DNA of 64,000 bases from Escherichia phage vB_EcoM_VR7: the sequence record NC_014792.1. One strand, 5' to 3'. The position numbers and the translations under genes were made by a program. Positions 7,180 through 62,533 of the stretch are shown in pieces. The notes beneath the pieces are model-generated. The model made no database searches, was not told where the DNA came from, and saw only the letters and a list, made by a program, of their open reading frames with translations. The stretch's first letter is position 1. The number at the start of each line of letters is the position of its first letter.

Positions 7180-7208
7180 ATTATACTCTGGCCCCAAGAG
7201 TTTGTACA
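7180..7208 (-). promoter_or_regulatory. early promoter, TGTACA-N17-TATAAT
   Basis: minus strand GTGTACAAACTCTTGGGGCCAGAGTATAATGGTCCC upstream of 6634..7137. Confidence 0.55.
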
Positions 7209-7214
7209 CTAAAC

Positions 7215-7970
7215 TTAATTAAAAATTTGAACAACCATGGAACGCGGGACAACAGTAAATTCACCAACATGGACGACGTTCAGGAGTTCAACACCATCTT
7301 CAATCCACTGGTCTGTTACCCAACCACAAATGGAACTATTAAATGGACGTTTGATTTGAACTGGTTTGCACAGCAAGTCAACAGGGTCACCCAGTTCGCT
7401 AACTTCTTTCAACAGTACAGATTCACGCGGGTAAAGGATAGCTTCAAGATGCTCGTCTGATTCATTGACTGCAGTAAATTCAAAGATGTTTAAGTGAGTG
7501 CTGTACTTAACTGTTTTTACAGTAAATGGAGCAAAGCCAAAAATACCTTTCAGCACACGCCAACCTGCATGCAGTGCGATAGCATTATCAAACTGGCTAC
7601 CATCTTCAATAAGCTGATATGTTTTACCAACTTTGATAGGAGTTTCTTCAACTTCTTTGAAAAGTTCAATCTCAGCTTCATAAACCATAATTTTTTCTAC
7701 TTCATTAGTATCCAGACGACGGGCATGCAAAATATATGCTTTATCAAACCAGTTACTTTTTACAAAAGTTTCAACAACAAATTCACCTTCACCCAAAGCA
7801 TCAGTCAGAGTTTCATACCCAGAAATCATAGCTGCGTTTTGAATAATAGGTTCAATCAGATGATAAGTTTTGTTAATTTCAATAGTCATATTTTGTTTCT
7901 CAAGTTTTAATGGTTTAATAAGAGTACCGTACATGCTTGCGATATCAAAGTCAATAAATTCTAGTTTCAT
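7215..7970 (-). CDS. hypothetical protein, paralogous C-terminal domain
   Basis: 251 aa; C-terminal VTDQWIEDGVELLNVVHVGEFTVVPRS. Confidence 0.55.
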   Translation of the reverse strand: MKLEFIDFDIASMYGTLIKPLKLEKQNMTIEINKTYHLIEPIIQNAAMISGYETLTDALGEGEFVVETFVKSNWFDKAYILHARRLDTNEVEKIMVYEAEIELFKEVEETPIKVGKTYQLIEDGSQFDNAIALHAGWRVLKGIFGFAPFTVKTVKYSTHLNIFEFTAVNESDEHLEAILYPRESVLLKEVSELGDPVDLLCKPVQIKRPFNSSICGWVTDQWIEDGVELLNVVHVGEFTVVPRSMVVQIFN

Positions 7971-8227
7971 TATGCCACCTCGTTGAACATCGCTAGTTGA
8001 TTGGGTTGCACAACCATAATTTCACGACGACCTTTTGCGTTTGACACGTTCAGGTAGATGCCTTTGTTCATGTCTGTTTCTTTATCATATACTGCAACTT
8101 TATTGACAGTAAAGATTTTACCACGAATATTTGTAAATGCACATTCAAACGCTTTGGTCAGACCTGCTTCAGCAGCTTGAATAGCAGACATTTCATATTG
8201 TTGGCCAATTTTAAAAGAAGTAATCAT
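7970..8227 (-). CDS. hypothetical protein
   Basis: start moved to MITSFK after the conserved leader and GAGGAAA RBS. Confidence 0.5.
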   Translation of the reverse strand: MITSFKIGQQYEMSAIQAAEAGLTKAFECAFTNIRGKIFTVNKVAVYDKETDMNKGIYLNVSNAKGRREIMVVQPNQLAMFNEVA

Positions 8228-8258
8228 TTTGTTTTCCTCATCAGTAGTTGATGAGATG

Positions 8259-8287
8259 ATTATGTCTCTTTCCATTGGCCTTGTACA
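8259..8287 (-). promoter_or_regulatory. early promoter cassette (TGTACA-N17-CATAAT plus conserved leader)
   Basis: GTGTACAAGGCCAATGGAAAGAGACATAAT then CATCAACTACTGATGAGGAAAACAAAATG. Confidence 0.55.
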
Positions 8288-8294
8288 CTACTTT

Positions 8295-8978
8295 TTATCG
8301 TTTTTTCGGTAAAGATAGCGGGTCTGCATCTTCTTCGGCAGGAACTTCATCTAAACCAAGAGCATAGCGCTGGGCGTACTTAAGCATAAGAATATCTTTC
8401 GCACAATCATGTACACTATCGTGCGCTACAAATCCATCCAAAGTCCCCTTCGGTAACGGAGTTTCACACATCTTACGGACGAGTGACAGTGCTTCGATTG
8501 CTGTTCGGATATCTCGCTGGTTCCAGAATACAACCGGTTCCAGGTCATAGGTATTCAATTCACGCTCAGGGATACCCTCATTGCGCTGCAGGTCGCGAAT
8601 AAGGTCAACAAACAACGGGAAGTCAAAAGACATCCCACGACACCACATAAGGCTTTCGTATTTGTTAATTCCGTTGCCCTTCAGATAGTCAATCGCTTGT
8701 TGGATACCAGTCAGAGTATCAACATCTTGTGCCATCGGCGCCAGGTTAACACGTGCTTCTGGAGATTGTTTTTTCCACCAACCCATGGTTGTTGTGTCAA
8801 ACAGACGTTTACCTTTCTGGTATTCTAGGCTGAACTTAATGCGTTTACCGCGATTAACCAGAGTTTCGAATGATTCCACAATAGCAGGGTCAGATTCGAA
8901 TGTAATCAGAGCCAGGTCAATAACGGCTCCCTTCGAGCCGTTTCCCAGAGTTTCAAAGTCAATAATAGCATCAATCAT
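8295..8978 (-). CDS. dexA: exonuclease A (DnaQ-like 3'-5' exonuclease)
   Basis: 227 aa; DEDD exonuclease start IIDFETLG; position between dda and the gp39 side as in T4. Confidence 0.8.
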   Translation of the reverse strand: MIDAIIDFETLGNGSKGAVIDLALITFESDPAIVESFETLVNRGKRIKFSLEYQKGKRLFDTTTMGWWKKQSPEARVNLAPMAQDVDTLTGIQQAIDYLKGNGINKYESLMWCRGMSFDFPLFVDLIRDLQRNEGIPERELNTYDLEPVVFWNQRDIRTAIEALSLVRKMCETPLPKGTLDGFVAHDSVHDCAKDILMLKYAQRYALGLDEVPAEEDADPLSLPKKR

Positions 8979-10828: not shown

Positions 10829-11575
10829 TTAACCTCTAATCAGTTTAAAAATTGACGCGTTCAAAGGTAGACCACGTTTCAGTTTTAATTTACCAATAAA
10901 ACCAATCTTCTCAAAACGCTCAAGACCTTGAATGATTTTATCATAGCAATCAAAAAGCGTTTCAGCATTAGTTAATTTCTTGGTAACTTTCCAGTCATTA
11001 CCCTTGAGCAGGACATTCAATTTAGTAAGCTCATGGCCTTCTGCAATACGGGACCCATCAATGCGAGCCTTCAGAGCAACCATTTTTAATTGGTTTTCTT
11101 TTGACTGCTCTGATTTACTCATTTGGGCATAATGCTTAACGCGATTCTCACGTTTGTGCTGGATGTTCTTTATATGGTTGTATGACTTTTTAATCTGTTC
11201 CCATTTCTCTGAAGTCAGATTTAACTTTTCAATCTTCTTGGCAGATGGGCGAGCAATTTTTACAGCAACATCATCACGACGTTGTTTAAGCTCATCCAGG
11301 GACCAATCAGAACGCATGGTATTGTATTTCTTTTTAACAGGAATAACATTACCCTTGATATAACCAATATCATTGTTAAAACGTTCTAATGATAACTTCT
11401 CGTCTTCAATAGAGTTATTAAATGCTTCACCAGAATAAGCACAAACTTTTTGGTCAAGAATGTTAACCAAGTAATTGAAATCCAGGTTAAAGTCCTTACC
11501 ACGGCGTTTAGCAGAAGCTTGAGTGTGTTCCAGACGACGTTTAACTTTCAGCGTTTTGGTTTTTGATAAAGTCAT
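10829..11575 (-). CDS. hypothetical basic protein, possible His-Me finger nuclease-like motif (srd position)
   Basis: 248 aa; CAYSGEAF...LSLERFNNDIGYIKGNVIP resembles a DRID-GY-N-V nuclease motif; Lys-rich C-terminal half. Confidence 0.4.
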   Translation of the reverse strand: MTLSKTKTLKVKRRLEHTQASAKRRGKDFNLDFNYLVNILDQKVCAYSGEAFNNSIEDEKLSLERFNNDIGYIKGNVIPVKKKYNTMRSDWSLDELKQRRDDVAVKIARPSAKKIEKLNLTSEKWEQIKKSYNHIKNIQHKRENRVKHYAQMSKSEQSKENQLKMVALKARIDGSRIAEGHELTKLNVLLKGNDWKVTKKLTNAETLFDCYDKIIQGLERFEKIGFIGKLKLKRGLPLNASIFKLIRG

Positions 11576-11622
11576 GATATTTTTCTCATCTTACGGACGA
11601 TTAAATAACTCAGTATGGAATC

Positions 11623-11650
11623 ATTATACACTATTCATCTTTTATGTACA
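11623..11650 (-). promoter_or_regulatory. early promoter cassette (GATTCCATACTGAGTTA leader class)
   Basis: GTGTACATAAAAGATGAATAGTGTATAATGATTCCATACTGAGTTA. Confidence 0.5.
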
Positions 11651-11710: not shown

Positions 11711-12325
11711 TTAATTCAAAACAGTTAAATGCCAAACAGTATACAGGTTATTCAATGGGTGTGTCTCAATTAAATCTACGCGAAGCGTAGTCCCAGCGGG
11801 AAACATAAACTCATCCTCATCATTAACCAGGTGTAAGTTTGACTTCCTGGTTGCTTCTGGATATGCACCATTGAACTCTTCAGGAGGAGCACCGCAAATC
11901 ATTTTAAAGATTGCTTCCTGATAGTTATACGCATAAGGTGCATTGTTTATGCAGAAAATATTCCTTGTACCATAGAAGCTATATGATGCGAAATTTCTTG
12001 CAACCTGCCAGTCCCTGGAAAAACTCATCACACGATTAAACTCAATTGTTGCACCAACATATCTTAAATCTTCCAGGTGTTCCATGGTTTTCTTTGATAT
12101 ACCACGGAACAATGCCGCATGCGGTTCAGTGTTCAGATTGTTGCGGATAATCCTGGTTAAGTCTTCTTGAATCAGGTCGGGTTTATTTTCCATACACTGC
12201 CAGAGTACTGATTGCTCATTATCTGTATAAAGGGCATCAATCTCTGCTTGACATTGGTCACGAAAAGACTCGCTAGAAGCGGCAGTGTCAATAATTCCAT
12301 TCAAAACGTCATCAGTGTACAGCAT
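11711..12325 (-). CDS. ADP-ribosyltransferase, ModA/ModB-like
   Basis: R-S-E signature: LFRG, MSFSRDW, EDEFMFP; start moved to MLYTDD after conserved leader. Confidence 0.7.
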   Translation of the reverse strand: MLYTDDVLNGIIDTAASSESFRDQCQAEIDALYTDNEQSVLWQCMENKPDLIQEDLTRIIRNNLNTEPHAALFRGISKKTMEHLEDLRYVGATIEFNRVMSFSRDWQVARNFASYSFYGTRNIFCINNAPYAYNYQEAIFKMICGAPPEEFNGAYPEATRKSNLHLVNDEDEFMFPAGTTLRVDLIETHPLNNLYTVWHLTVLN

Positions 12326-12356
12326 TTTATTATCCTCATCAGTAGTTGATAGGAAC

Positions 12357-12385
12357 ATCTTAACGTGTCTTATTGTTCTTGTACA
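12357..12385 (-). promoter_or_regulatory. early promoter cassette
   Basis: TGTACA-N17-TAAGAT then TATCAACTACTGATGAGGATAATAAAATG. Confidence 0.5.
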
Positions 12386-12930
12386 CAGTCAAGAACATAA
12401 TAATCACCAACAAATCCAGCATCAACTATCACGAATTTCTGGTCAACTGGAACAAACCATTCAAGCTCAGAATCAATCATGTCCATATATTCTTCACGCC
12501 TTAATGTAGCTTCCTGTTTGGAACCAGATGCAGTATTGAAGAATTTCAGTGGAACATCAAGCGCGAGCTTACGCATCGCATCATGATAACAAAAAGCCTC
12601 GGTCTGATTTAATCTGACAATAGTCCTTGTCACATATTCCATTGCAGCAAAATCCCTGGCAATGCCATAGTCTTCTGTAAAGGAAGTTATTCTTCCAAAT
12701 TCAAAAGGTTGCATTGATTCTTTTGCTTCATCTAACAAATCAATCTCTTGCTGGGTAACCCCGCGATACAAGACTGTATCAGGTACAGATAGCCTTGACT
12801 TGATGATTGAGTTGACGTTTGAATGCAAGGTTTTGTCAACCTTTGATGTGCGACATTCAAACAATGAAGCTATCTCCATTTCACTAAATTTTAACTGGTT
12901 GGGTTCGGTATCAGATTTGATGATGTTCAT
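12370..12930 (-). CDS. ADP-ribosyltransferase, ModA/ModB-like paralog
   Basis: 186 aa; LYRG, ITSFTEDYGIARDFA, acidic EEYMDMIDSELEW; tandem with the previous ART. Confidence 0.6.
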   Translation of the reverse strand: MNIIKSDTEPNQLKFSEMEIASLFECRTSKVDKTLHSNVNSIIKSRLSVPDTVLYRGVTQQEIDLLDEAKESMQPFEFGRITSFTEDYGIARDFAAMEYVTRTIVRLNQTEAFCYHDAMRKLALDVPLKFFNTASGSKQEATLRREEYMDMIDSELEWFVPVDQKFVIVDAGFVGDYYVLDCVQEQ

Positions 12931-12986
12931 AATGACCTCTCTGTTGTAAGAAAGGCCATTATGTCATTAGGAGGAGAGTAAGTAAA

Positions 12987-14754: not shown

Positions 14755-14799
14755 AGTATTCTCCTCTGTAATTGAAATAATTATACCATCTCTATTAAA

Positions 14800-14830
14800 A
14801 GCAAAAAAGGGAACCCGAAGGTTCCCTTTA
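14800..14830 (-). terminator. UUCG-tetraloop terminator downstream of soc
   Basis: gggaacc-cgaa-ggttccc with flanking A/T runs. Confidence 0.65.
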
Positions 14831-14831
14831 A

Positions 14832-15129: not shown

Positions 15130-15816
15130 TTAAATGCCTCTAAATTCATATATTAAAAGTTTAAGTGCACTAGGGGTTGTTTCGTATTTCCCTTTAAGTG
15201 CTTTAACCACGGCAGTTGCCCCACCGGGTTTACCTAATGAAAGCCAAATCTGATAGATTTCACTTTTCAACGGTTCATGCCAATGGGCAGCGGTTCTTTG
15301 AGCTTTAGATGTGGCTTCTGATACGATTTTATTTCCACCATTTGCGTAAAACTCATTCATTGCTTCTGATTGTCTGGATTTGCGTTCAGGCCTATTTTGA
15401 GCGGTGCTTTGAGCTTCCTTCATTTTGGCTTTGGTTTTTGGTTTGTTTAAACGCAATGTTTGGGCCAACTTCATTTCGTCCGTCCATTCGTATCCTTCAC
15501 CACCCTGTCCACCGGGTAAAATATTAATACAATTTGAACCATGTTTAGAATTTAATAATGATATTATATATCTTTCATGTTCAAACATCATTTCCCGATT
15601 CTGGTGACCTACAAACCAACGAATTTTATATTTGACCCCATATTTTTTATAGATATTCCAAAGTATTTTTCCAGAGCCAGGATATCGGTCTTTATTTGGG
15701 TCTAATACATTGGTCTCATGTTTACCACCATACCAAAAAACGCCTTTCGGCGTTTTAACTTTAATTATATAAGTTCTATAAAATTTTGCCTTAATAGCCA
15801 TGGTCCTGGCGCTCAA
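15130..15816 (-). CDS. putative GIY-YIG homing endonuclease (segF position)
   Basis: 228 aa; YIIKV...FWYGGKHE, EHERYII, NILPGGQGG; basic C-terminal DNA-binding-like region. Confidence 0.5.
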   Translation of the reverse strand: MSARTMAIKAKFYRTYIIKVKTPKGVFWYGGKHETNVLDPNKDRYPGSGKILWNIYKKYGVKYKIRWFVGHQNREMMFEHERYIISLLNSKHGSNCINILPGGQGGEGYEWTDEMKLAQTLRLNKPKTKAKMKEAQSTAQNRPERKSRQSEAMNEFYANGGNKIVSEATSKAQRTAAHWHEPLKSEIYQIWLSLGKPGGATAVVKALKGKYETTPSALKLLIYEFRGI

Positions 15817-16309: not shown

Positions 16310-16391
16310 TATTTTTCCTTATCAATTCATGTTGTTTGTATGTTAATTATATCATATTGAGTTGAAGCATAAATAAAAGAAAGGAGGATGT

Positions 16392-16589
16392 ATGCTAAAA
16401 CTATCTAGTCTAATTCAAGCCATTAAAGGCAGTCGTAAGCGAACGATTTTGGCCCTTTCGATACTCTGTTCAGTTCTTTTATGGAACTTCATTGTCGCCC
16501 CTATTGCATTGGCACATGGTCTTGTGCTTCCAGTCGTTGCCTTCGAATCAGTTGTAGATGTTTCACTGGCATTAATCGGCCTTATATAG
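16392..16589 (+). CDS. small membrane protein (plus strand)
   Basis: 65 aa; strong RBS AAAGGAGGATGTATG; hydrophobic segments. Confidence 0.5.
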   Translation: MLKLSSLIQAIKGSRKRTILALSILCSVLLWNFIVAPIALAHGLVLPVVAFESVVDVSLALIGLI

Positions 16590-16597
16590 GTGGAACT

Positions 16598-16867
16598 ATG
16601 GGAACATTATTCTATCAGATATGGAAATTAACCAGTAAGAAAGACAAGAAGCTTATCATGGGATTTTTAGCTCTTGATATTTTCCTGTGGAACTTACTGG
16701 TTGTACCTATCGCCGCAACACAAGGGGTACACTTACCCCAGGTCACAATGGGGCATATCCATTCCATCATCGGTTTACTTTACCGGAATCCCTTCCTAAA
16801 CTTTTGCGTACTTCGAAAGTCGCATTCTTGCCATCAACCCTTTGGGCACGTTATCAGCCATATATGA
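16598..16867 (+). CDS. small membrane protein, paralog of 16392..16589
   Basis: LALDIFLWNLLVVPIAATQG resembles LALSILCSVLLWNFIVAPIALAHG; 3' end converges on primase; end uncertain. Confidence 0.4.
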   Translation: MGTLFYQIWKLTSKKDKKLIMGFLALDIFLWNLLVVPIAATQGVHLPQVTMGHIHSIIGLLYRNPFLNFCVLRKSHSCHQPFGHVISHI

Positions 16868-17824
16868 TTCGATTTGTTCAGGGGTTGCCCCTTCTGATTT
16901 AACCATCTCATTTATGTCTTTTGTATGCCATGGCGCATTATCCCAGAACATAACGGCTTCACCAGCTTCAACGAGTTTCTTCATACGTTTAATCGTATCA
17001 GGATGTCTTGGCTCGTTGTCCATTACCCATACTCTGGTTTCAGCATAAGGAACCGCTTCCAATGACAATGTACCGCCGGTTATCGCAATGCTGTTAGGGA
17101 TAAACAAACTATCAATCGGACCTTCCATTACCCACACGCGCTTACGCTCATCAATCTTGTCTACCCCGTAGACTTTGGAAGCTTCTGGGTGGGCTTTGAT
17201 GGTGATATATTTTTGTGGTGCATCTTTGCGAAGAGCTCGTCCTTGGAAAGATTCGATTTCTTTTTTGCCGTTGAAGATAGGAATAACCAAGCGTGGTTCA
17301 TTCGTTTCATTCTTATACGTCCCAGGATTAACGGAGTTAACTAATGCAGGCCATTTGTTTGTAAACCATAGCCGGTCCCAAACACCAGCCGGAATACACC
17401 GACTTTTTACATACTTAACTATCGGATGCGCTTCTGGTAAAGTATCGAGTCTTTCACAAAAAGCAAGCTGCTCGATAACCGGAGTTTTTTCTGGCTCTTT
17501 CGGAGTTTCTGTGACTTCAGTACGTTGTCGACCAAAGGCATTCTCCTTGTACTTCTCGACCATATATTCCCGGTGTAAATCTGGCTCAAACTCTTTTATG
17601 TATTTGCTTATATGTGTGGAGTAGTCACAGTTAAAACATTTCACATAAACCGCGCCATCCGCTGGATTGGTATACGCCCAGAATCGAGCCTTATGTGAAT
17701 CCTTTTGGGAGTCCCCGCAAACTTTACATCTACAGTTTGCCTTAAATGTGCTCCCGGTGACTTCTCTATAACGTGGTTGATACGATAAAGCTCTGACCGC
17801 AAATTCTTTATCAATATATGACAT
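16796..17824 (-). CDS. 61: DNA primase
   Basis: 342 aa; zinc ribbon CRCKVCGDS...CFNCDYSTH; TOPRIM-like EGPIDSLF. Confidence 0.9.
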   Translation of the reverse strand: MSYIDKEFAVRALSYQPRYREVTGSTFKANCRCKVCGDSQKDSHKARFWAYTNPADGAVYVKCFNCDYSTHISKYIKEFEPDLHREYMVEKYKENAFGRQRTEVTETPKEPEKTPVIEQLAFCERLDTLPEAHPIVKYVKSRCIPAGVWDRLWFTNKWPALVNSVNPGTYKNETNEPRLVIPIFNGKKEIESFQGRALRKDAPQKYITIKAHPEASKVYGVDKIDERKRVWVMEGPIDSLFIPNSIAITGGTLSLEAVPYAETRVWVMDNEPRHPDTIKRMKKLVEAGEAVMFWDNAPWHTKDINEMVKSEGATPEQIESYMADNVPKGLMARMRLSKYAKV

Positions 17825-19232: not shown

Positions 19233-19526
19233 TTATTCACCTGTAACTTCTTTGACGATGTTTTCATTTTCAAAGTTAGGGTCACAATACAACACGTAAT
19301 TATACTGCATAACCCCACCAGATGCCAACTGGTCAGATACTTCTTTGACCTTGTTTAGTTGGTCACGTTTAGTGATGTTCATGATGTCCGCGTAAATCTG
19401 GTGTTCAACTGCTTCCTGGTCAGCGGTCATTGACCACTCACAAAGGTCTTTATCATAACCAGCGGTAACTGGAGCTGCGTGACATGAAGCGAGGACTAAG
19501 ATTGCTGCGATAGATAACTTTTTCAT
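19233..19526 (-). CDS. sp: spackle periplasmic protein
   Basis: 97 aa; signal peptide; GYDKDLCEWSMTADQ and GGVMQYNYVLYCD recalled from T4 Sp. Confidence 0.7.
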   Translation of the reverse strand: MKKLSIAAILVLASCHAAPVTAGYDKDLCEWSMTADQEAVEHQIYADIMNITKRDQLNKVKEVSDQLASGGVMQYNYVLYCDPNFENENIVKEVTGE

Positions 19527-19554
19527 TTGAATCTCCTTAGTAGTTGATGGGATA

Positions 19555-19583
19555 ATATTAAATCATTATTATCCCGTTGTACA
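19555..19583 (-). promoter_or_regulatory. early promoter cassette
   Basis: TGTACA-N17-TAATAT then TATCCCATCAACTACTAAGGAGATTCAAATG. Confidence 0.55.
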
Positions 19584-20415: not shown

Positions 20416-20706
20416 TTAGATTTCCTCACAAAAGGCCCATTCAGCATGATAAACTGTTGCGCCAGGGGTTGCATTCATTTGAACCAAGTCTACAGGTGAA
20501 ATCACACGATATAGCTTAGGTTCTCCTCCAATTGAACGTGCTGCACGTCCAGCATAAATCTTCGCCAAACCAATGTCTTCAGTAAAGAACACGCGATTTA
20601 GATTTTTCTTACGACCAGTTTCTGACAGGACTCCAGTTTCTTCTGGAGGACAAAGCATGTTATTGATATTTGCCAGACTGCATGACCCATGATAGAAAGT
20701 TTTCAT
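20416..20706 (-). CDS. hypothetical protein
   Basis: 96 aa; first gene after an early promoter cassette. Confidence 0.5.
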   Translation of the reverse strand: MKTFYHGSCSLANINNMLCPPEETGVLSETGRKKNLNRVFFTEDIGLAKIYAGRAARSIGGEPKLYRVISPVDLVQMNATPGATVYHAEWAFCEEI

Positions 20707-20732
20707 TTTATTCTCCAGTAGTTGATAGGGTC

Positions 20733-20761
20733 ATTATACTATAAAGAAAAGGGGGTGTACA
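20733..20761 (-). promoter_or_regulatory. early promoter cassette, -35 inside a hairpin
   Basis: GGGGGTGTACACCCCC palindrome, then N17-TATAAT-GACCCTATCAACTACTGGAGAATAAAATG. Confidence 0.55.
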
Positions 20762-20774
20762 CCCCCTTTATCAC

Positions 20775-21077
20775 TTATGCCAACTCATAATTGTGCATTG
20801 TCAGACAACGAATTTTTCCAGTAGTTGGGTGCATAACAGTCACACTAATTGTGCAATCATCACACACGTTAACAAAAGGTTCCGCGATAACAAATACTTC
20901 ACCGCCTGCCAACAGATACTCACGAAGGCTTGAGCGAACCGCTGAAGGGTGAACATCGCTTTTGAGCTTTATTAATTTACCGGTTTGAATGCCAGATGCG
21001 ATAAGAGCAGCACAGGTTTCATCACGGCGAGCGAATTGTCCAAAGTAGTAACGATTCATGTCGGTTTGATTAAACAT
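20775..21077 (-). CDS. hypothetical protein
   Basis: 100 aa. Confidence 0.5.
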   Translation of the reverse strand: MFNQTDMNRYYFGQFARRDETCAALIASGIQTGKLIKLKSDVHPSAVRSSLREYLLAGGEVFVIAEPFVNVCDDCTISVTVMHPTTGKIRCLTMHNYELA

Positions 21078-21128
21078 ATGGTTTTCCTTTTTAGTGGGTT
21101 GGTTTATTGTGTAACTCAGTATGGAATC

Positions 21129-21157
21129 ATTATGCCCTAGTAGAATTCAGTTGTACA
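21129..21157 (-). promoter_or_regulatory. early promoter cassette (GATTCCATACTGAGTTAC class)
   Basis: TGTACA-N17-CATAAT-GATTCCATACTGAGTTAC. Confidence 0.55.
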
Positions 21158-21164
21158 CCCCTTT

Positions 21165-21195
21165 TTAAAATAAAAAAGGACCCGAAGGTCCTTGT
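21165..21195 (-). terminator. UUCG-tetraloop terminator downstream of gp41
   Basis: aggacc-cgaa-ggtcct with A/T runs. Confidence 0.6.
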
Positions 21196-25028: not shown

Positions 25029-25267
25029 TTGGTTTCCTTGATGATAATTACTTGTGCGTTTGATTTACGTTCAGCAACGAGTGCCCAAATCAATGCAATT
25101 ACCCAACCAATCATCGTCCACCCAAACAGAAGGTTGATGAAAAAGATTCCGACATTGCTTCGGGTGCCACGCAGTAATGCGATAATCCACGGTAGAAAAT
25201 ATGCCAATGCAGCCAAGAATAAAGAACCAGCGCCAAGAACAAAAGTACCCGCAATTATTGTTTCCAT
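25025..25267 (-). CDS. small membrane protein, possibly Imm-like
   Basis: 80 aa, two hydrophobic helices; position just downstream of gp43 as T4 imm. Confidence 0.4.
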   Translation of the reverse strand: METIIAGTFVLGAGSLFLAALAYFLPWIIALLRGTRSNVGIFFINLLFGWTMIGWVIALIWALVAERKSNAQVIIIKETK

Positions 25268-38595: not shown

Positions 38596-38600
38596 CCTTT

Positions 38601-45799: not shown

Positions 45800-46324
45800 T
45801 TATGCGAGAACCGTCTTTAAACGCTCTTCAAACTTCTGAAGGAGTACCTGGCGCTCTGCTCTTTGTTTGGTATAGGTTTCAATACGCTCTGAAGTGAGAT
45901 TGTATTGTTCATTAACTGATTCCCGCATGAATTCAGGAATCTCTTTACATGCTTTGATTTCATTGAACTTATCAAGCACTGCTTGATGTTCAGCAATCAG
46001 ACCATCATAATATTGGATATCTGATTTGATGTTCTGTACATCAGATTCAGTTGGCATATTTTTCTTTACTCTTGCCGCTTGATACTCAGCATTAGTCTCT
46101 CTTGACCAGAACAAAGAGCGGTTTTTGTTAGTGTTTTTATACACATCAATAATACCAACTGAATCAACATTCACAATCCAGTTCCAGGCGTTTTTATAAG
46201 TTTGACCACCTGATACTGTAATCTCACCTGCACAAGCAACATCATTAAAGAACTTGCTTTGTGCTTCTGATTTAAAATTACCATTATTGTAATTAATCAG
46301 ATTAAAGATTGATTTGGCTTCCAT
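45800..46324 (-). CDS. hypothetical protein
   Basis: 174 aa. Confidence 0.5.
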   Translation of the reverse strand: MEAKSIFNLINYNNGNFKSEAQSKFFNDVACAGEITVSGGQTYKNAWNWIVNVDSVGIIDVYKNTNKNRSLFWSRETNAEYQAARVKKNMPTESDVQNIKSDIQYYDGLIAEHQAVLDKFNEIKACKEIPEFMRESVNEQYNLTSERIETYTKQRAERQVLLQKFEERLKTVLA

Positions 46325-46358
46325 TTTATTCTCCAGTTTGGTAACTCAGTATGGGAAC

Positions 46359-46387
46359 ATTATACGTCTATCCCATACTGATGTACA
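46359..46387 (-). promoter_or_regulatory. early promoter cassette
   Basis: TGTACA-N17-TATAAT-GTTCCCATACTGAGTTACC. Confidence 0.55.
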
Positions 46388-46699: not shown

Positions 46700-46906
46700 T
46701 CACTTGCGACGGCGTTTTGGTAATGGTTTAGGGAAGAACATTGCTTTACCTGCAGGGGTCAAAGTCACACGCAAAGCATTACCAATACCAAGGGATGCTT
46801 TAACCAGACCTTTGGCTTTTAACTCACCAAATGCTTGACGTTGTTCAGGGTCACGAGTGTTAACCATCAGACCTTTTTCACCAGCAGCTTTGATTAATTC
46901 TAACAT
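46700..46906 (-). CDS. hypothetical protein
   Basis: start moved to MLELIKAAG after conserved leader and GGAGAATAAAATG RBS. Confidence 0.45.
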   Translation of the reverse strand: MLELIKAAGEKGLMVNTRDPEQRQAFGELKAKGLVKASLGIGNALRVTLTPAGKAMFFPKPLPKRRRK

Positions 46907-46945
46907 TTTATTCTCCAGTTTTATTTGGTAACTCAGTATGGAATC

Positions 46946-46974
46946 ATTATGCCTCATGACCATCTGGTTGTACA
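46946..46974 (-). promoter_or_regulatory. early promoter cassette
   Basis: TGTACA-N17-CATAAT-GATTCCATACTGAGTTACC. Confidence 0.55.
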
Positions 46975-46984
46975 CTACTTTTTA

Positions 46985-47015
46985 AAATAAAAAAGGACCC
47001 CGAAGGGTCCTTTGT
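46985..47015 (-). terminator. UUCG-tetraloop terminator
   Basis: ggaccc-cgaa-gggtcc flanked by A/T runs. Confidence 0.6.
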
Positions 47016-56727: not shown

Positions 56728-57027
56728 TTAAAAAGAACCAGAGCCTTTAATTGTGTTCTGGCGACCTTTATTTTCGAATTCAGAATGGTCGATTTCGTAT
56801 GCTTGTGCTACGCCAAAGGCCTTTTTAACTTTAGCTAAAGAACCTTTAGATGTAACAATATTAAAAGTATTGCCTTTGGTAAAATCAACCAAATCCACTT
56901 GCACACCCTGTTTACCGAGGCTTGCTACAATAGCATCAACATATTGTTGGTCTAAATTGCCTTGAACCCCAATTTGAAATGCTTTAGGAACTTTGGCTTC
57001 TGTGATAAATTCTTGATAAGTTAACAT
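56728..57027 (-). CDS. internal head protein (capsid-targeting sequence)
   Basis: 99 aa; N-terminal MLTYQEFITE resembles the T4 internal protein targeting sequence. Confidence 0.6.
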   Translation of the reverse strand: MLTYQEFITEAKVPKAFQIGVQGNLDQQYVDAIVASLGKQGVQVDLVDFTKGNTFNIVTSKGSLAKVKKAFGVAQAYEIDHSEFENKGRQNTIKGSGSF

Positions 57028-57056
57028 TATACACTATCCCATCATAAAGTAAACAG

Positions 57057-57320
57057 TTAAGCTTTACCGCCAGAAACAATACCAAAGGTCTCAAAGTCCC
57101 ATTCAATATCGTCAACATCAACTTTCTTACCAGCAACCACAAATGCGATTTCGCGGCGTTTTGCATAGGTAACAATTTCTTTGCCATCGCCGCCAAAGAA
57201 AGAATAACCATTGCGCTTCATGGTGCCAAAGTCTTCAGCATCACCAGCGAAGGCACGGACTTTAAAGGAGCCAGCAGGAGCTTTAGCAGATTCAGTAATA
57301 AATTCTTGATAAGTTTTCAT
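57057..57320 (-). CDS. internal head protein (capsid-targeting sequence)
   Basis: 87 aa; N-terminal MKTYQEFITE. Confidence 0.65.
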   Translation of the reverse strand: MKTYQEFITESAKAPAGSFKVRAFAGDAEDFGTMKRNGYSFFGGDGKEIVTYAKRREIAFVVAGKKVDVDDIEWDFETFGIVSGGKA

Positions 57321-57333
57321 AATGTCTCTTTAG

Positions 57334-57648
57334 TTAAGCTTTAGGGAAATCGCGCAAAAACGCATCATAAAGTTTATTACCAATGCGACGGAATGCTTTT
57401 GCCGCATGAACGTTATCTGGGTTTGCAATTTTAATCTGCATTACATGACTACCAGCCCATGATTTAGCTTCGTCATAATAACCTTTAATTTCTTTAATAG
57501 TCTTGCGTTTTCCACCAGGACCATCGACAGTAATTTTCCACGAACCAGTGCTTGTTTCACTTGGTGGGGTTAACTGTTCAATCCAGACATAACCACCTTC
57601 AACACGTTGTTGAGTAGATTCAGTAATAAATTCTTGATAAGTTTTCAT
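57334..57648 (-). CDS. internal head protein (capsid-targeting sequence)
   Basis: start moved to MKTYQEFITES; track ORF extends to 57687 through the promoter -10. Confidence 0.6.
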   Translation of the reverse strand: MKTYQEFITESTQQRVEGGYVWIEQLTPPSETSTGSWKITVDGPGGKRKTIKEIKGYYDEAKSWAGSHVMQIKIANPDNVHAAKAFRRIGNKLYDAFLRDFPKA

Positions 57649-57678
57649 TTTATATTCCATTGTTTGGTTGATAAAATC

Positions 57679-57707
57679 ATTATACAACCTTTTTAGTTAA
57701 GCGTACA
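57679..57707 (-). promoter_or_regulatory. early promoter upstream of the internal-protein genes
   Basis: GTGTACG-N17-TATAAT on the minus strand. Confidence 0.45.
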
Positions 57708-58113
57708 CAGCTTTCCCATAGTATTTGTACCAGGTAGGCTTTTGAGAAATTTTCTCATTCAGTCTGGATTGACTGATTTCAATTGACCAGATTGATGGTT
57801 GATAATCATTCTTCCATTCATCAGGAATATCATTTAAATCTTGGGTAGAAATATCTTTTATATTAAACCCTCGCTTTAAACATTCAGCAATAAGTTCTTG
57901 ATGACGGTTTTTAAGGAACAAAAGCTTATCATAAAAGAAGGTGACATGACCAGTCCCTAAAAGAAAAGATGATGGGATTTTAAAGTCAGACACCTTTTTA
58001 CCATTTTGCACATGCTTACGAACAGCACCAAACACGCGAGGAAGCTCACGGTATTCAGCCATAAGGTGTTGGTCAGCAAGTTCAGATACCAGGGTTAAAT
58101 TAATGCGAGTCAT
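57697..58113 (-). CDS. denV: endonuclease V (pyrimidine dimer DNA glycosylase)
   Basis: 138 aa; near-identical to recalled T4 DenV ([34 protein letters not shown]). Confidence 0.9.
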
Positions 58114-58139
58114 GTTTGTTCTCCGTAGTTGATAGGGTC

Positions 58140-58168
58140 ATTATAACCCTATCGTTTGGAGATGTAAA
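58140..58168 (-). promoter_or_regulatory. early promoter cassette upstream of denV
   Basis: TTTACA-N17-TATAAT-GACCCTATCAACTACGGAGAACAAACATG. Confidence 0.5.
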
Positions 58169-59943: not shown

Positions 59944-60623
59944 CCCTCCATAGGGAATTCCAGATATACTTGGGCATTAACGCGGATTTCATTGGTAATA
60001 TTTTTAACACGGTCAGTGTTACGAGATACACGACCAAACCAACGCCAACCATTGCGCACTGTCTGGGAACCAGTATGCCAGGTATGACAATTAAACTGCA
60101 GGAGTGTGCGGTCAGGAGCTTCCCATTGCTCTAATTCACCTGATTCAATTTTAGCCAGAACTTCTTTATGCCATTGGCGATAAATCAGTTCACCTTCTGG
60201 GATTTCACTAAAGGTGGCTTCGCCTGTAGCAAAATGGGTAGGACACACATCAGCGTTAACAAGACCAAGAATGTGTTCAGACATATAGCGAGGGTTGTCA
60301 TAATCTGGTTGACCCGCAGTAATAAAATGTTGTCCAGTTGGAATGGGTGGACGCGGAACATCATCATGATGATAGCCAGGGATAGCTGGATACCAACCCG
60401 GCATTAACATATGCACACGTGAATCAAACACAACATGTTGATTAGTCCAATCAATTGGGAGATTGGCAATAAAGCTACGAGTGATTGGACCACCATTATC
60501 CCAAGCAAAACTCAAATCACAGTTAAAAAACATTGGTTCATTTTTGATTTGGTCATTTTGTACGTTATGTGCAAAACCACCAACTGCACGAGCTTGACTA
60601 TTAAAAGTTTTAGGACCGTTCAT
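59937..60623 (-). CDS. hypothetical His-rich protein, possibly a metal-dependent oxygenase-like fold
   Basis: 228 aa; YHHDD and CHTWHTG spaced roughly as an HxD...H triad; weak. Confidence 0.45.
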   Translation of the reverse strand: MNGPKTFNSQARAVGGFAHNVQNDQIKNEPMFFNCDLSFAWDNGGPITRSFIANLPIDWTNQHVVFDSRVHMLMPGWYPAIPGYHHDDVPRPPIPTGQHFITAGQPDYDNPRYMSEHILGLVNADVCPTHFATGEATFSEIPEGELIYRQWHKEVLAKIESGELEQWEAPDRTLLQFNCHTWHTGSQTVRNGWRWFGRVSRNTDRVKNITNEIRVNAQVYLEFPMEGW

Positions 60624-60650
60624 AATATTTTCCTCATTGATTGTGGGACC

Positions 60651-60679
60651 ATTATGTCATAGCCCCATTTGGTTGTACA
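60651..60679 (-). promoter_or_regulatory. early promoter cassette
   Basis: TGTACA-N17-CATAAT-GGTCCCACAATCAATGAGGAAAATATTATG. Confidence 0.55.
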
Positions 60680-60682
60680 CAC

Positions 60683-61333
60683 TTATTTTTGTCTATTATA
60701 ATATTTCAATTCAGCGGCGCGACGTCTTTCCATTGCTTCGTCGCGAGAATCACCATAGTAAAGTTGGATTTCTTTATGATTAACAGTAATATATGATATC
60801 CATTTACCTCTGTCTTTTCTAAACTTGACACCTGTAATTGGACCAGGTGAATCTTTTCGGGTATCCTGGTCAAATGACTGTATTGATGATGAAGCCCATT
60901 CGCAAGTTTCTTTACTGTATAGCTTACATGAATTTATCCGATTAATGCTTGTACCTGCTGGACGAATACCCATATCTTCAACAAAATTCAAATAACCAGT
61001 TTTTCCCTTTGGTAGCCACCTATCACATATTTGTACACCAGCGCCACCATACTGCTTCCAACGATGATGGTTAGGATTTGTACACCTTTCAATCATGGCA
61101 GCATACGATGAATATGTAGGTTTGTCAGAAATAAATGAATAATGATATTTCTGACAGCCGCATGATTTGGTTTTACCTGATTTTATACGAGCGGCGGCTG
61201 TGACAAACTCTTTACCACAATGACAAATACAATTCCATTTAGTAGAAACTCCAGCGGTTTTATATGCTACCGAAACAAATTTGATTCCATTAATAATTTT
61301 ACCAGTCAAATCTTCTAATGGTCTTCCCATCAT
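60683..61333 (-). CDS. putative homing endonuclease-like protein with AP2-type DNA-binding domain
   Basis: 216 aa; zinc knuckle CICHCGKEF...CGC; INRINSCKLYSKETCEW motif; C-terminal GVKFRKDRGKWISYITVNHKEIQLYYG...AAELKYY is AP2-like. Confidence 0.5.
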   Translation of the reverse strand: MMGRPLEDLTGKIINGIKFVSVAYKTAGVSTKWNCICHCGKEFVTAAARIKSGKTKSCGCQKYHYSFISDKPTYSSYAAMIERCTNPNHHRWKQYGGAGVQICDRWLPKGKTGYLNFVEDMGIRPAGTSINRINSCKLYSKETCEWASSSIQSFDQDTRKDSPGPITGVKFRKDRGKWISYITVNHKEIQLYYGDSRDEAMERRRAAELKYYNRQK

Positions 61334-62295
61334 TCATCCTTTTTGAATGGTTTAATTAAATGCTGGTTAGCCTTAAAACGTTTAATATAATCGTCATGAC
61401 CTAAAGCATTATACATACTTATAATTTTACCATAATTTTCATATGCGAAGGTGCGGAACCATCCAGAAGTAATGGAGGTACAGACTTTTTCTAGTGCAAT
61501 ATGGAAGCTCACGGATGGAGATATACTAAACTCGTTAGGAACCTGCGAACGCTCCAGAGCGAGTACACATGCTTCTTCATAAACCCCTGCCAGTTTAATA
61601 ACATCAGGGAGTGCTTCAAATTTTTCACGTGAGGTCATGACTTCTGAATCATCCTTCATATAGAACTTATATGCAGGCTTATCAGCAAGCGCCACGGCCT
61701 CGTGGATGGAGTCATGGTCAAGGGTATAGATTGTATCATTAAAGAAAGTTTTCTTGCCCACGTCTAGTTTAGGGTGACTATATGACAGTGTTTCTGTCTG
61801 ACGTTGTAACATGATTTTCTGCAGTTCATCATTAAGAACAACACCCTTATTACGAAGGTAATTAATATGGCTCATGGTCTTCAGGAAGAATGGATTGTTC
61901 TTCAGATAACGATGAGATAATTTAATTGCCAGACAAATATCAGGAGTCGCCCAGTAAAAACCAGATAGACGGTCCTTTTTAATATGATTTTCAGCATATT
62001 TCAGGAGACGATAACTTGAGGTGAAATCTTCGTCTTGAAGCTCGCCAGTAATTTCTCGTACGTTGGTCAGGGCACGGACAATATAAGCTTCAAAATAGGT
62101 TTCTTTGCCATTGTACATACATTTAAAAGCTTGGACATCAGGGTTATCCACAGGAACATGAGCACCGAACATACGTGCTTTAAAGTGGTTCCATGAGCCT
62201 TGGTCGGCAATGAAATCCCAATCAGAGTTTTCAATTTTCTGACTTTCAATCAGACCAGCGTTATGTAATGCACGAGAACCAATAACTAACATCAT
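61330..62295 (-). CDS. hypothetical protein, possible nucleotidyltransferase fold
   Basis: 321 aa; N-terminal IGSRALHNAGLIESQKIENSDWDF loosely fits GS...DxD; weak. Confidence 0.4.
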   Translation of the reverse strand: MMLVIGSRALHNAGLIESQKIENSDWDFIADQGSWNHFKARMFGAHVPVDNPDVQAFKCMYNGKETYFEAYIVRALTNVREITGELQDEDFTSSYRLLKYAENHIKKDRLSGFYWATPDICLAIKLSHRYLKNNPFFLKTMSHINYLRNKGVVLNDELQKIMLQRQTETLSYSHPKLDVGKKTFFNDTIYTLDHDSIHEAVALADKPAYKFYMKDDSEVMTSREKFEALPDVIKLAGVYEEACVLALERSQVPNEFSISPSVSFHIALEKVCTSITSGWFRTFAYENYGKIISMYNALGHDDYIKRFKANQHLIKPFKKDE

Positions 62296-62308
62296 AATAT
62301 TTTCCTCA

Positions 62309-62476
62309 TTAGTAAAGACGAGTTACTTCATATTTTCCAAGTGCCGATTTTTTCGCTTCAATTCGTGAGGCAGCAAGATTGGCGGCCTCTAGTGAAGAAA
62401 ATTGAACCACTTGAGAAGTATTCTGTCTTACTCCACCTTGCGGGTGAGTGACAAAAACAATAAGAACATTATACAT
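62309..62476 (-). CDS. small hypothetical protein
   Basis: about 55 aa; first ORF after an early promoter cassette; approximate. Confidence 0.3.
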   Translation of the reverse strand: MYNVLIVFVTHPQGGVRQNTSQVVQFSSLEAANLAASRIEAKKSALGKYEVTRLY

Positions 62477-62504
62477 AATATTTTCCTCATTAGTTGACGA
62501 GATA

Positions 62505-62533
62505 ATGATACTACGTTTCTTTAGGCTTGTACA
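62505..62533 (-). promoter_or_regulatory. early promoter cassette
   Basis: TGTACA-N17-TATCAT-TATCTCGTCAACTAATGAGGAAAATATTATG. Confidence 0.55.

Follow-up and report, generated by a model that had tools for sequence, protein, structure and literature searches.

A repeated early-promoter module of probable PeSL type in the rIIA-to-e region of Escherichia phage vB_EcoM_VR7

Identity and genomic setting

The window analysed, a 64,000-nucleotide stretch of the Escherichia phage vB_EcoM_VR7 genome (NC_014792.1), contains a real repeated element of 60-100 nt, which constitutes the early-promoter set of a T4-like phage. Judged from the sequence, the cassettes are very probably early-class promoters, each packed with a hairpin or terminator and a leader into a compact module of promoter-early stem-loop (PeSL) type. 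The window represents the rIIA-to-e early region of a Gaprivervirus, a T4-type phage like VR25, VR26 and SP18, and is 95-98% identical to VR25 and VR26. Among the genes that cassettes precede are orthologues of T4 early genes (motB, modA, srd, sp, imm, regB and denV); regB itself is thus encoded within the window.

Detection and strand specificity

A position matrix of 37 columns, extending from the -35 through 8 nt past the -10, was built from the copies and applied with a cut-off of at least 12 bits. Twenty matches were obtained on the minus (coding) strand of the window and none on the plus strand; 40 dinucleotide shuffles averaged 0.23 and never exceeded 2. Leave-one-out scores ranged from 11.8 to 37.5 bits. 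The same matrix yielded 20-21 minus-strand and no plus-strand matches in the relatives. Nineteen copies are convincing and two further sites (37470 and 40731) are weak, which bears out a preliminary description of at least 17 copies; its reading of these as early sigma-70-type promoter and leader units appears to be right. The type 1 leader (TATCCCATCAACTACTGAGGA) was matched five times at up to three mismatches and the type 2 leader (GATTCCATACTGAGTTAC) four times, on the minus strand only in both cases, with shuffles yielding 0.00 and 0.04, respectively. An unbiased repeat search returned the cassette as the largest direct-repeat families (D1-D7, D10 and D11). Cassettes were not separable from background in a generic sigma-70 scan (69 found, 58 expected); TGTACA agrees with TTGACA at only four of six positions.

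The convincing copies, followed by the two weak sites and the modB promoter, are:

62474-62533, minus strand: -35 from 62533, before a 55-aa ORF (VR7 gp137-like); TGTACA-17-TATCAT, leader tatctcgtcaactaatgaggaaaatattATG (type 1 variant); no stable hairpin; replacement breakpoints versus VR25 and SP18 lie inside it.
60621-60679, minus strand: -35 from 60679, before a 228-aa ORF; TGTACA-17-CATAAT, ggtcccacaatcaatgagga leader, stem TGGGGC/GGTCCCA around the -10; a 651-nt indel ends 10 nt upstream.
58111-58168, minus strand: denV cassette, -35 from 58168; TTTACA-17-TATAAT, type 1 leader with GGAGAACAAAC; 8-bp stem GATAGGGT/ACCCTATC with the -10 in its loop (z -3.2).
57658-57707, minus strand: -35 from 57707, before an internal-protein gene; TGTACG-17-TATAAT, gattttatcaacc leader, stem GGTTG/CAACC around the -10.
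54908-54966, minus strand: regB cassette, -35 from 54966; TGTACA-17-TATGAT, tatcccatcaaacaaaaGGAGataatcATG.
50991-51090, minus strand: -35 from 51050, before a MobD.5-like ORF; TTTACA-17-TACTAT, exact type 1 leader; predicted TTCG-loop terminator upstream (51090-51063).
46904-47013, minus strand: -35 from 46974; predicted terminator 47013-46992, TGTACA-17-CATAAT, type 2 leader ending GGAGAATAAAATG (D11).
46322-46387, minus strand: -35 from 46387; TGTACA-17-TATAAT, type 2 leader with GGAGAATAAAATG as Shine-Dalgarno sequence (SD); 11-bp inverted repeat TCAGTATGGGA/TCCCATACTGA around the -10 (z -4.4).
43727-43785, minus strand: -35 from 43785, before an NrdC.4-like ORF; TTTACT-17-TATAAT, gaattcctactttatgaggag leader; the weakest good copy.
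38531-38600, minus strand: -35 (TGTACA) from 38593, in the loop of AAAGGGG/CCCCTTT (z -4.0); TATCAT -10, type 1 leader CATCAACTACTGATGAGGAAAACAAAATG (D2).
25265-25341, minus strand: -35 from 25341, between gene 43 and imm; TTTACA-17-TATTAT, type 1 leader; hairpin CGGCAAT/ATTGCCG within the spacer (z -4.7); an early promoter with the leader ATCAACTACTGA occupies the corresponding T4 site.
21075-21192, minus strand: -35 from 21157; predicted terminator AGGACCTTCGGGTCC with T-run, TGTACA-17-CATAAT, type 2 leader.
20704-20770, minus strand: -35 from 20761, within GGGGGTGTACACCCCC and followed by a T-run, a predicted terminator/promoter overlap (z -2.8); TATAAT, type 1 leader ending GGAGAATAAAATG.
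19524-19583, minus strand: sp (spackle) cassette, -35 from 19583; TGTACA-17-TAATAT, type 1 leader; 9-bp stem GGGATAATA/TATTATCCC takes in the -10; the orthologous T4 promoter has ATAAACTACTGAGGAG.
12323-12397, minus strand: modA cassette, -35 from 12385, in the loop of TGTTCTTG/CAAGAACA; TAAGAT -10, type 1 leader.
11573-11650, minus strand: srd cassette, -35 from 11650; TGTACA-16-TATAAT, type 2 leader; the sole 16-nt spacer.
8225-8287, minus strand: -35 from 8287, before a VR7 gp013-like ORF (T4 motB.2 position); TGTACA-17-CATAAT, type 1 leader.
7135-7208, minus strand: motB cassette, -35 from 7208; TGTACA-17-TATAAT; 7-bp stem TGGGGCC/GGTCCCA around the -10, then GGAGAATAAAC in the leader.
2716-2791, minus strand: -35 from 2764; predicted terminator GGTCTCCTTCGGGAGACC with T-run, TGTACA-17-TAAGAT, short leader; outside the range of the preliminary description.
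40660-40731, minus strand: weak or doubtful site; TTTACA-17-TATAAT inside the gp49.1 ORF, conserved in T4 (T4 47451); an indel breakpoint lies 25 nt upstream in 3/3 relatives.
37391-37470, minus strand: weak site; TATAAT in the loop of GGGGTCA/TGACCCC (z -3.0), no -35 match; it may be half a cassette or belong to a different class of promoter.
12928-12986, minus strand: modB early-type promoter; TTTACT-17-CATAAT, neither conserved leader.

Anatomy of the cassette

In the consensus, 17 nt separate gTGTACA or TTTACA from TAtAAT, after which come a discriminator rich in C (gaTCCC), an A as the predicted start and a short leader. The -35 reads TGTACA in 14 copies, TTTACA in three, and TGTACG and TTTACT in one each; the 17-nt spacer is present in 18 of the 19, the other being of 16 nt. 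An ATG-initiated ORF lies 17-51 nt past the -10 in all 19. An A-rich tract is found upstream of the -35, and positions -6 to +2 are conserved; the box following the -10 (gATCCCAT) holds 0.5-1.1 bits per position and the -35 slightly more (1.0-1.6 bits). This extended consensus agrees with published T4-type early promoters (Hinton 2010, PMC2988021; Nolan 2006, PMC1524935). The leader is type 1 (ATCAAC.., core ATCAACTAC) in 11 copies, type 2 (CCATACTGAGTTA, core ATACTGAGTTAC) in four and of another kind in four, so that 15 of the 19 carry one of the two types. Since the modB promoter has neither, the promoter can occur leader-free.

Known causes account for part of the leader conservation. The RegB/S1 consensus, GGAGAAUAAAA / GGAGRAYARAA (Durand 2006, PMC1702504), is matched exactly in three leaders (the 46974, 46387 and 20761 copies), where, as at T4 RegB/S1 sites, it forms SD and spacer; GGAGAAUAAAC occurs in the motB leader, and regB is present with GGAG in its own SD. 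Cleavage by RegB may be expected at such sites. Unlike the T4 sites, only about half of the cassettes have GGAG; the rest have GAGGA, which does not match the GGAG consensus of RegB/S1 sites.

T4 early promoters, which comprise UP, -35 GTTTAC, TGn and -10 elements with extra consensus regions (Hinton 2010, PMC2988021; Nolan 2006, PMC1524935), are of the same class as the cassettes. They occupy the same places at motB, motB.2, sp and imm.1, the last three with the related leader ACTACTGAGGA, and share the A-rich -40s and 17-bp spacer. In the cassettes, unlike T4, G replaces T at -34, the conserved TGn is absent and CCC is conserved at -3 to -1, a feature that the early promoters of RB69, RB49 and 44RR are reported to share (PMC2988021, PMC1524935).

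Hairpins

A hairpin is present in 14 of 19 cassettes, either as a predicted TTCG-loop terminator upstream or as a stem that surrounds the -35, occupies the spacer or encloses the -10; a convincing hairpin is absent from the other five. Those beside or around the -35 confirm the preliminary description, to which the in-spacer and -10-bracketing forms are an addition. The mean hairpin z was -1.45, with z < -2 in 8 of 20. Real upstream/downstream pairings gave -5.98 kcal/mol versus -4.59 kcal/mol for chimeras (permutation p = 2e-4), and the two strongest terminator-like sites of 44-63 kb adjoin cassettes. In the motB stem, 92% of cells are paired and both sides have changed in five of seven pairs; the covariation score was reached by 0 of 500 shuffles. 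This -10-bracketing stem covaries in at least three genera (Gaprivervirus, Tequatrovirus and Dhakavirus). T4 motB, too, has a stem around its -10, as does T4 dmd when read by eye. The -10-bracketing stems of the cassettes are not followed by a U-run and are thus not canonical terminators. In many cases the discriminator forms the 3' arm of a selected stem.

Relationship to PeSLs

PeSLs were described in RB49/phi1 (Arbiol 2010, PMC2839356), extended to T4/PST and nt-1/KVP40 and proposed for all T4-like phages (Comeau 2014, PMC4122927); this literature, to which the preliminary description had pointed, fits the cassettes. Common to both are the order of the unit (upstream stop codon, AT-rich tract, -35, 17 nt, -10, SD, ATG) and a stem-loop of variable position (upstream, over the -35, in the spacer or over the -10), which the five published stem positions fit. 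Also shared are chimeras and indels whose crossovers fall within the unit, the presence of half-length or degraded copies and of middle-promoter versions, and a distribution that in VR7 concentrates copies among small accessory genes and leaves few in the replication block (25-38 kb). Differences are the -35 (TGTACA here, TTGACA in RB49, TTTACW in T4/PST) and the far more conserved discriminator and leader, the latter of two types.

Recombination and breakpoints

Chimeric cassettes occur in relatives, with crossovers within the conserved leader. VR26_46225 joins the promoter of the window's 46387 copy to the leader and gene of the 46974 copy; SP18 has, behind a 21157-type terminator, an inserted extra gene whose promoter is of the 51050 type; in VR25 the denV promoter half is swapped along with an ip5 indel. 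Long near-identical copies lie 25-30 kb apart within the window: the 21157 and 46974 copies (D11) share 84% identity over 81 nt, terminator included, and the 8287 and 38593 copies (D2) 82% over 77 nt.

Cassettes had been proposed to mark the borders of variable gene blocks. Against a uniform null they do, 11 of 52 breakpoint ends falling at cassettes where 1.9 are expected. The proper null, however, is gene junctions rather than uniform positions, and on this basis cassette junctions are not enriched (6/19 versus 30/111 other gene junctions in three relatives; Fisher p = 0.44), in which they differ from PeSLs. The step from leader conservation to a mobile cassette was likewise overstated, having ignored the T4 leaders, the C at -3 to -1, the RegB/S1 sites and the stem arms. 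Recombination inside cassettes is visible in VR26, SP18 and VR25.

Alternative explanations

If each copy independently required one and the same optimum in promoter, initial transcribed sequence and RBS, functional constraint could explain the repeats without mobility, leaving recombination no special role. The leader common to T4 orthologous promoters, the generality of C at -3 to -1 among T4-like early promoters, the ordinary breakpoint frequency of cassette junctions and a modB promoter that apparently does without the leader would all suit this reading. It is nonetheless rather unlikely, as the likeness of the D11 and D2 copies, terminator included in the former, far exceeds the functional consensus, chimera crossovers fall inside the leader and SP18 has an ectopic promoter copy. 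An actively mobile element, with a dedicated recombinase or site-specific nuclease target and genes moved as mini-circles like integron cassettes, would be in keeping with the mini-circles reported and the stem-binding protein speculated upon in RB49/phi1 (PMC2839356, PMC4122927), and several indels here do end inside cassettes. It is very improbable given the lack of enrichment over ordinary gene junctions, the many indels that have no cassette or are explained by homing endonuclease genes, and crossovers in the longest shared blocks, as homology-driven exchange predicts.

The promoter lies inside a stem, as do T4 late promoters in RBS-masking hairpins (gene e; PMC3014915), so that in both systems the promoter's own transcripts lack the 5' arm. 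Only cassette-started transcripts might then be translated, with read-through RNA silent, as at the T4 lysozyme gene. Predicted RBS openness is 0.61 in primary and 0.50 in read-through RNA (p = 0.006, RNA lengths unmatched), and the 51050 spacer TCCTCA pairs by eye with the SD TGAGGA. Unlike gene e, the cassette promoter is early-class and the 3' arm is usually not over the RBS, stopping 8-15 nt before the SD in most copies and leaving it uncovered, which makes such gating quite improbable. The box from -6 to about +12 (gaTCCC-ATCAACTAC) could instead be an operator at which a phage factor or a modified polymerase binds to shut off early promoters a few minutes post infection, a mechanism stated in the literature as not understood for T4. 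Its conservation almost equals that of the -35, and it is largely missing from the window's middle-type promoters. T4, however, shows shut-off with unconserved discriminators (acaact, ataaac, aacacc), stem pairing and start-site preference explain much of the box, and no candidate protein is known; an operator of this kind is very improbable.

Proposed mechanism

As modules of PeSL type, the cassettes would act just after DNA injection, when host sigma-70 RNA polymerase would bind the A-rich tract, gTGTACA/gTTTACA, 17-bp spacer and TAtAAT and start transcription at the A 7 nt past the -10, in the conserved gaTCCC-A box. The resulting leader of 11-45 nt, mostly ATCAACTACTGA.. or ATACTGAGTTAC.., would end in a strong SD, GAGGA, or in an SD doubling as the RegB/S1 cleavage site GGAGAAUAAAA, and the outcome would be strong early expression followed by post-transcriptional shut-off. 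The stem-loop of each module would fold only in transcripts that read through from upstream. Given enough intergenic room, it would precede the -35 as a canonical terminator with a TTCG loop. If the preceding stop codon directly adjoins the -35, the promoter itself would accommodate the stem, which would then surround the -35, sit within the spacer or enclose the -10, so that the spacer covaries with the discriminator. Its function is most likely read-through attenuation and/or 3'-end protection of the upstream mRNA. The conserved blocks, 20-80 nt long, may double as homology patches, with recombination between copies swapping promoter halves, moving genes and thereby keeping the copies alike. 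Because PeSLs have already been described in related phages, the element is a tidy example rather than a new kind.

Identification of a repeated early promoter cassette

The window was placed by megablast in the rIIA-to-e early region of Gaprivervirus, the T4-type phages of the VR7/JS98/SP18 group, with VR25 and VR26 being 95-98% identical to it. Nearly all of its genes are carried on the minus strand, in the order found in VR25, VR26, SP18 and T4. A unit consisting of an early promoter and a leader, mostly with a hairpin, here termed the cassette and named by the start position of its -35 element, recurs along this strand.

Cassettes of the window (position of -35, strand, hairpin and gene where assigned)
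62533, minus strand, promoter and leader
60679, minus strand, stem bracketing the -10
58168, minus strand, 8-bp stem bracketing the -10, denV
57707, minus strand, stem bracketing the -10
54966, minus strand, promoter and leader, regB
51050, minus strand, TTCG-loop terminator directly upstream
46974, minus strand, TTCG-loop terminator directly upstream
46387, minus strand, 11-bp stem bracketing the -10
43785, minus strand, promoter and leader
38593, minus strand, -35 within a stem-loop
25341, minus strand, stem inside the spacer, between gene 43 and imm
21157, minus strand, TTCG-loop terminator directly upstream
20761, minus strand, -35 within a stem-loop
19583, minus strand, 9-bp stem bracketing the -10, sp
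12385, minus strand, -35 within a stem-loop, modA
11650, minus strand, promoter and leader, srd
8287, minus strand, promoter and leader
7208, minus strand, stem bracketing the -10, motB
2764, minus strand, TTCG-loop terminator directly upstream and stem inside the spacer

Copies were recovered first with the pattern T[GT]TACA, 16-18 nt, TA...T, and then with a position matrix of 37 columns covering the -35 through the first 8 nt after the -10, at a cut-off of at least 12 bits. The matrix yielded 20 matches on the minus strand and none on the plus strand, against an average of 0.23 in dinucleotide shuffles, and leave-one-out scores held at 11.8-37.5 bits. Nineteen copies are convincing and two are weak (37470, without a -35, and 40731, within the gp49.1 ORF). 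Both leader strings occur on the minus strand only, where none would be expected by chance, and the largest families in an unbiased direct-repeat search correspond to the cassette. An ATG-initiated ORF starts 17-51 nt after the -10 at each copy. The upstream stop codon, where reliable ORFs allow it to be placed, is found anywhere from a few nt within the -35 region to 60 nt ahead of the -35. An equal frequency of the motif inside coding sequence, which the preliminary description had named as speaking against the element, was clearly not the outcome. The cassette is thus a real and statistically solid feature, in which the early promoters of VR7 are arranged in modules of the promoter-early stem-loop (PeSL) type.

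A generic sigma-70 scan was not discriminating as a cassette detector (69 sites versus 58 expected). What defines the cassette is an extended consensus specific to the phage. When IMG/VR was scanned for exact 14-16-mers of both leaders, the matches were mostly single and probably due to chance; VR20, VR25 and VR26 were the only contigs with several, and the scan was uninformative on distribution.

Promoter anatomy and class

Each cassette comprises, in order, an A-rich tract, a g followed by the -35, a spacer, the -10 and the sequence gATCCC-AT. Among the 19 copies the -35 is TGTACA in 14, TGTACG in one, TTTACA in three and TTTACT in one, and the spacer is 17 nt in all except a single copy, where it is 16 nt. 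The -10 resembles TAtAAT, and its A2 and T6 do not vary. The six positions preceding g-TGTACA prefer A (0.4-1.0 bits), and gATCCC-AT holds 0.5-1.1 bits per position, slightly under the 1.0-1.6 bits of the -35. Transcription is predicted to start at the A located 7 nt after the -10. Eleven leaders are of type 1 (ATCAAC[TA]AC..), four of type 2 (ATACTGAGTTA.) and four of other sequence; every leader finishes in a Shine-Dalgarno sequence of GAGGA or GGAG type. A modB promoter at 12986 is of early type without the conserved leader.

A GTTTAC-like -35 at 17 bp from a TAtAAT -10, a UP-like A-rich tract and a consensus extending beyond the hexamers are features of T4-type early promoters, and all were found here. 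The sites lie 5' of early genes in the direction of transcription and always on the coding strand, the downstream genes including motB, modA, srd, sp, imm, regB and denV. Judged by sequence and position, the cassettes are T4-type early (sigma-70-dependent) promoters. Middle (MotA-dependent) or late promoter identity was rejected, since none of the 19 cassettes has its -35 replaced by a MotA box (TGCTT) centred at -30, and TATAAATA is absent as well. Separate middle-type sites are present at 14755-14831, 34642-34698 and in other intergenic gaps. No curated RNA family of Rfam 15 matched anywhere in the window at the gathering score.

Plus-strand genes are confined to 16310-16900, at approximately 16392-16589 and 16600-16800 according to the VR25/VR26 annotation, and the 300-nt gap that they face contains a middle-promoter-like site for gene 56.

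Hairpins and relationship to PeSL elements

A hairpin is present in 14 of the 19 copies. The preliminary description had placed several copies next to a hairpin, or with the -35 inside one, and both arrangements were confirmed, by the TTCG-loop terminators at four copies and the stem-loops containing the -35 at three. No terminator-like sites between 44 and 63 kb are stronger than those abutting 51050 and 46974. Two further arrangements had escaped that description, namely the stems inside the spacer and those bracketing the -10, in which GGG-rich spacer bases pair with the CCC-rich discriminator. Folding of 63-nt segments gave a mean z of -1.45, with z below -2 in 8 of 20, and true upstream/downstream pairings were more stable than inter-cassette chimeras (-5.98 versus -4.59 kcal/mol; permutation p=2e-4). 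With at least 30 nt between the upstream stop codon and the -35, a separate terminator is the usual form of hairpin (4/6, combined by eye); with the stop abutting the -35, the hairpin is mostly folded into the promoter (10/13, likewise combined by eye). This suggests that hairpin position follows the distance between the upstream stop and the -35, a pattern matching the five subclasses described for the PeSLs of RB49 and phi1. Accessibility of the RBS differed little between primary and read-through RNA, a comparison without a length-matched control.

The unit fits the PeSL description (Arbiol 2010, PMC2839356) and its extension to T4/PST and nt-1/KVP40 (Comeau 2014, PMC4122927): it is a repeated composite motif of a promoter with a Shine-Dalgarno sequence and ATG at its 3' end, and in the 14 hairpin-bearing copies a stable stem-loop occupies one of several places with respect to the promoter. 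Termination or attenuation of upstream transcription by the stem-loop, and mini-circles arising between copies, are experimental features reported for PeSLs (PMC2839356). The window cassettes differ from published PeSLs in their TGTACA -35, in the stronger conservation of discriminator and leader, and in the covariation evidence. The 2010 paper (PMC2839356) also mentions sequences resembling PeSLs around gene 43 in JS98; in the window, gene 43 is closely flanked by cassette 25341 on its downstream side and by a terminator with a -10 box on its upstream side.

Middle-promoter versions and degraded halves of PeSLs have also been described, and PeSLs have been proposed for all T4-like phages (Comeau 2014, PMC4122927). 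A relic-like cassette similar to these 'half PeSLs' is found at 6583-6633, upstream of cef, where a hairpin (GATAGGGT..GCCCTATC) and leader (caATGAGGAGAATATTATG) resemble those of the denV cassette; it lacks a -35, and its -10 is degraded to TAATTT. At terminator hairpins 14770-14828, 34650-34711 and 28060-28138, the last upstream of gene 43, the T-runs lead directly into TTTGCTT, which resembles a MotA box and precedes a -10 box. On this sequence evidence, these sites are putative middle-promoter counterparts of the cassette (PmSL-like). Direct-repeat family D13 connects 14798, 34681 and 46983.

Covariation of the motB stem

The motB promoter was aligned from the window, VR25, VR26, SP18, T4, T6, PhiZZ6, Bp7, IME540 and WFK. 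Orthologues were drawn from GenBank phage records because scans of IMG/VR, with a degenerate motB promoter pattern and with the MotB protein, gave only close Gaprivervirus relatives. The F2 and APCEc01 loci matched other promoters and were left out.

In the 7-bp stem around the -10, 92% of cells are paired in a small sample of nine distinct sequences, from which the structure was itself derived, as against only 33-52% in slid controls. Both sides change at five of the seven pairs, for example A-U/G.U/G-C at one and C-G/U-A at another, and the covariation score was reached in none of 500 shuffles. In nine cells the sense-strand pair is G.U, equivalent to A.C in the other strand, which argues for a structure selected in the sense strand. 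Transcription from the cassette itself is predicted to begin within the 3' arm, so the stem would most simply form in RNA read through from upstream. Such G.U-tolerant, cross-genus covariation of a stem bracketing the -10 extends the published description of PeSLs and points to a sense-strand function. By eye, a perfect 9-bp inverted repeat (GACAAGACT..TATAGT..AGTCTTGTC) also brackets the -10 of the T4 dmd early promoter (locus L002, approximately 20611), so stems of this kind are not confined to the Gaprivervirus group.

Conservation of the leader

As sigma-70 recognition does not require a conserved leader, the preliminary description had viewed the element as a duplicated mobile cassette. 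Several causes of leader conservation were found, none of which needs mobility. Early-type promoters occupy the corresponding positions in T4 for motB, motB.2, sp and imm.1, with AT(C/A/G)..CTACTGA(G/T).. leaders at the last three; the leader core is therefore older than the genus split, whereas the CCC discriminator is not. A consensus beyond the sigma-70 elements is known for T4 early promoters (Hinton 2010, PMC2988021), and C at -3 to -1 with an A-rich tract in the -40s has been reported for those of RB69, RB49 and 44RR (Nolan 2006, PMC1524935). The 3' arm of the stem is, in many copies, formed by the discriminator. In T4 the RegB/S1 site reads GGAGAAUAAAA, with the 11-nt general form GGAGRAYARAA (Durand 2006, PMC1702504). 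Exact matches, as GGAGAATAAAATG, constitute predicted sites in the leaders of 46974, 46387 and 20761, and for comparison the motB leader contains GGAGAATAAAC. The window also encodes regB, behind cassette 54966, with GGAG in its own Shine-Dalgarno sequence. The central ATCAACTAC / ATACTGAGTTAC core of the leader may affect promoter escape.

The early-specific gaTCCC-ATCAACTAC / -ATACTGAGTTAC box, which covers the discriminator and the first transcribed bases, might be more than a start-site or stem sequence: it might serve this phage group as a cis-element for early-promoter shut-off, or be recognised by a dedicated recombination activity, though we give this very little credence. For shut-off, the box could act through a phage factor or a modified RNA polymerase. 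T4 is without the conserved discriminator, which makes the early-specific -6 to +12 box an unlikely cis-target of shut-off. If true, the shut-off or recombination reading would provide a handle on the still unexplained shut-off of T4-type early promoters.

Recombination and borders of variable blocks

Copies 25-30 kb apart have 77-81 nt in common at 82-84% identity, terminator included (repeat families D2 and D11). In VR26 a chimera (VR26_46225) joins the promoter half of 46387 to the leader and gene of 46974 within the shared CCATACTGAGTTACC block; in SP18 an additional gene, carrying a promoter nearly identical to the 51050 type, lies between the terminator and the -35 of a 21157-type cassette; and in VR25 the promoter half of denV has been replaced along with an ip5 indel. 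These chimeras indicate that cassettes have been used as crossover points.

Preferential association with indels or replacements among close relatives is a further feature of PeSLs. Breakpoints were taken from whole-region comparison with VR25, VR26 and SP18, VR20 being left out. Cassette zones contain 11 of 52 distinct breakpoint ends, against 1.9 expected uniformly. Whole-gene indels must, however, end at gene junctions, and a gene-junction null is therefore needed. Breakpoints occur at 6 of 19 junctions with a cassette and 30 of 111 without (odds ratio 1.25, p=0.44), and approximately 7 of 23 events, merged manually, touch a cassette, near the approximately 27% to be expected given the share of junctions that carry a cassette. 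Many of the indels have no cassette or concern homing-endonuclease genes. The proposal that cassettes mark the borders of variable gene blocks was not supported as a preference; against this null they do not appear to be special hotspots of gene gain or loss, though used as crossover points.

Homing-endonuclease-like genes at 4816-5529 (VR7 gp006-like) and 15130-15816 (segF-like) are missing or replaced in VR25 and SP18, and VR26 has inserts of mobD and of a further endonuclease gene at 48592 and 31013 of the window; several cassette-free indels are explained by these differences. Within the gp49.1 coding sequence, a good TTTACA-17-TATAAT match at 40660-40731 is kept in T4 (L002, 47451), and a replacement breakpoint lies 25 nt upstream of it, at 40756, in all three relatives. 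The anaerobic ribonucleotide reductase genes nrdG and nrdD (approximately 2.4 kb in VR25 and SP18) are missing at 39410-39535, where just 124 nt with a 41-aa ORF separate a gp55.8-like gene from gene 49, as in VR26. An internal-protein gene array at 56728-58113 varies in content among VR25, VR26 and SP18. The first 39 nt or so of these genes (ATGAAAACTTATCAAGAATTTATTACTGAATC..) occur four times (family D9) and presumably encode a conserved capsid-targeting N-terminus. Five small genes (65-96 aa) stand in tandem at 62580-63839, four gene junctions having in common a 43-nt repeat (family D8) of gene end and next RBS; this shared repeat suggests tandem paralogues.

The analysis provides a statistically checked catalogue of Gaprivervirus early transcription units, a group for which no promoter description was found in accessible papers. 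The stem covariation and the junction-level null result both add to what has been published on PeSLs and are of moderate interest to phage specialists. PeSL architecture extends to Gaprivervirus, with a -35 of its own (TGTACA) and with a discriminator and leader conserved to an unusual degree.
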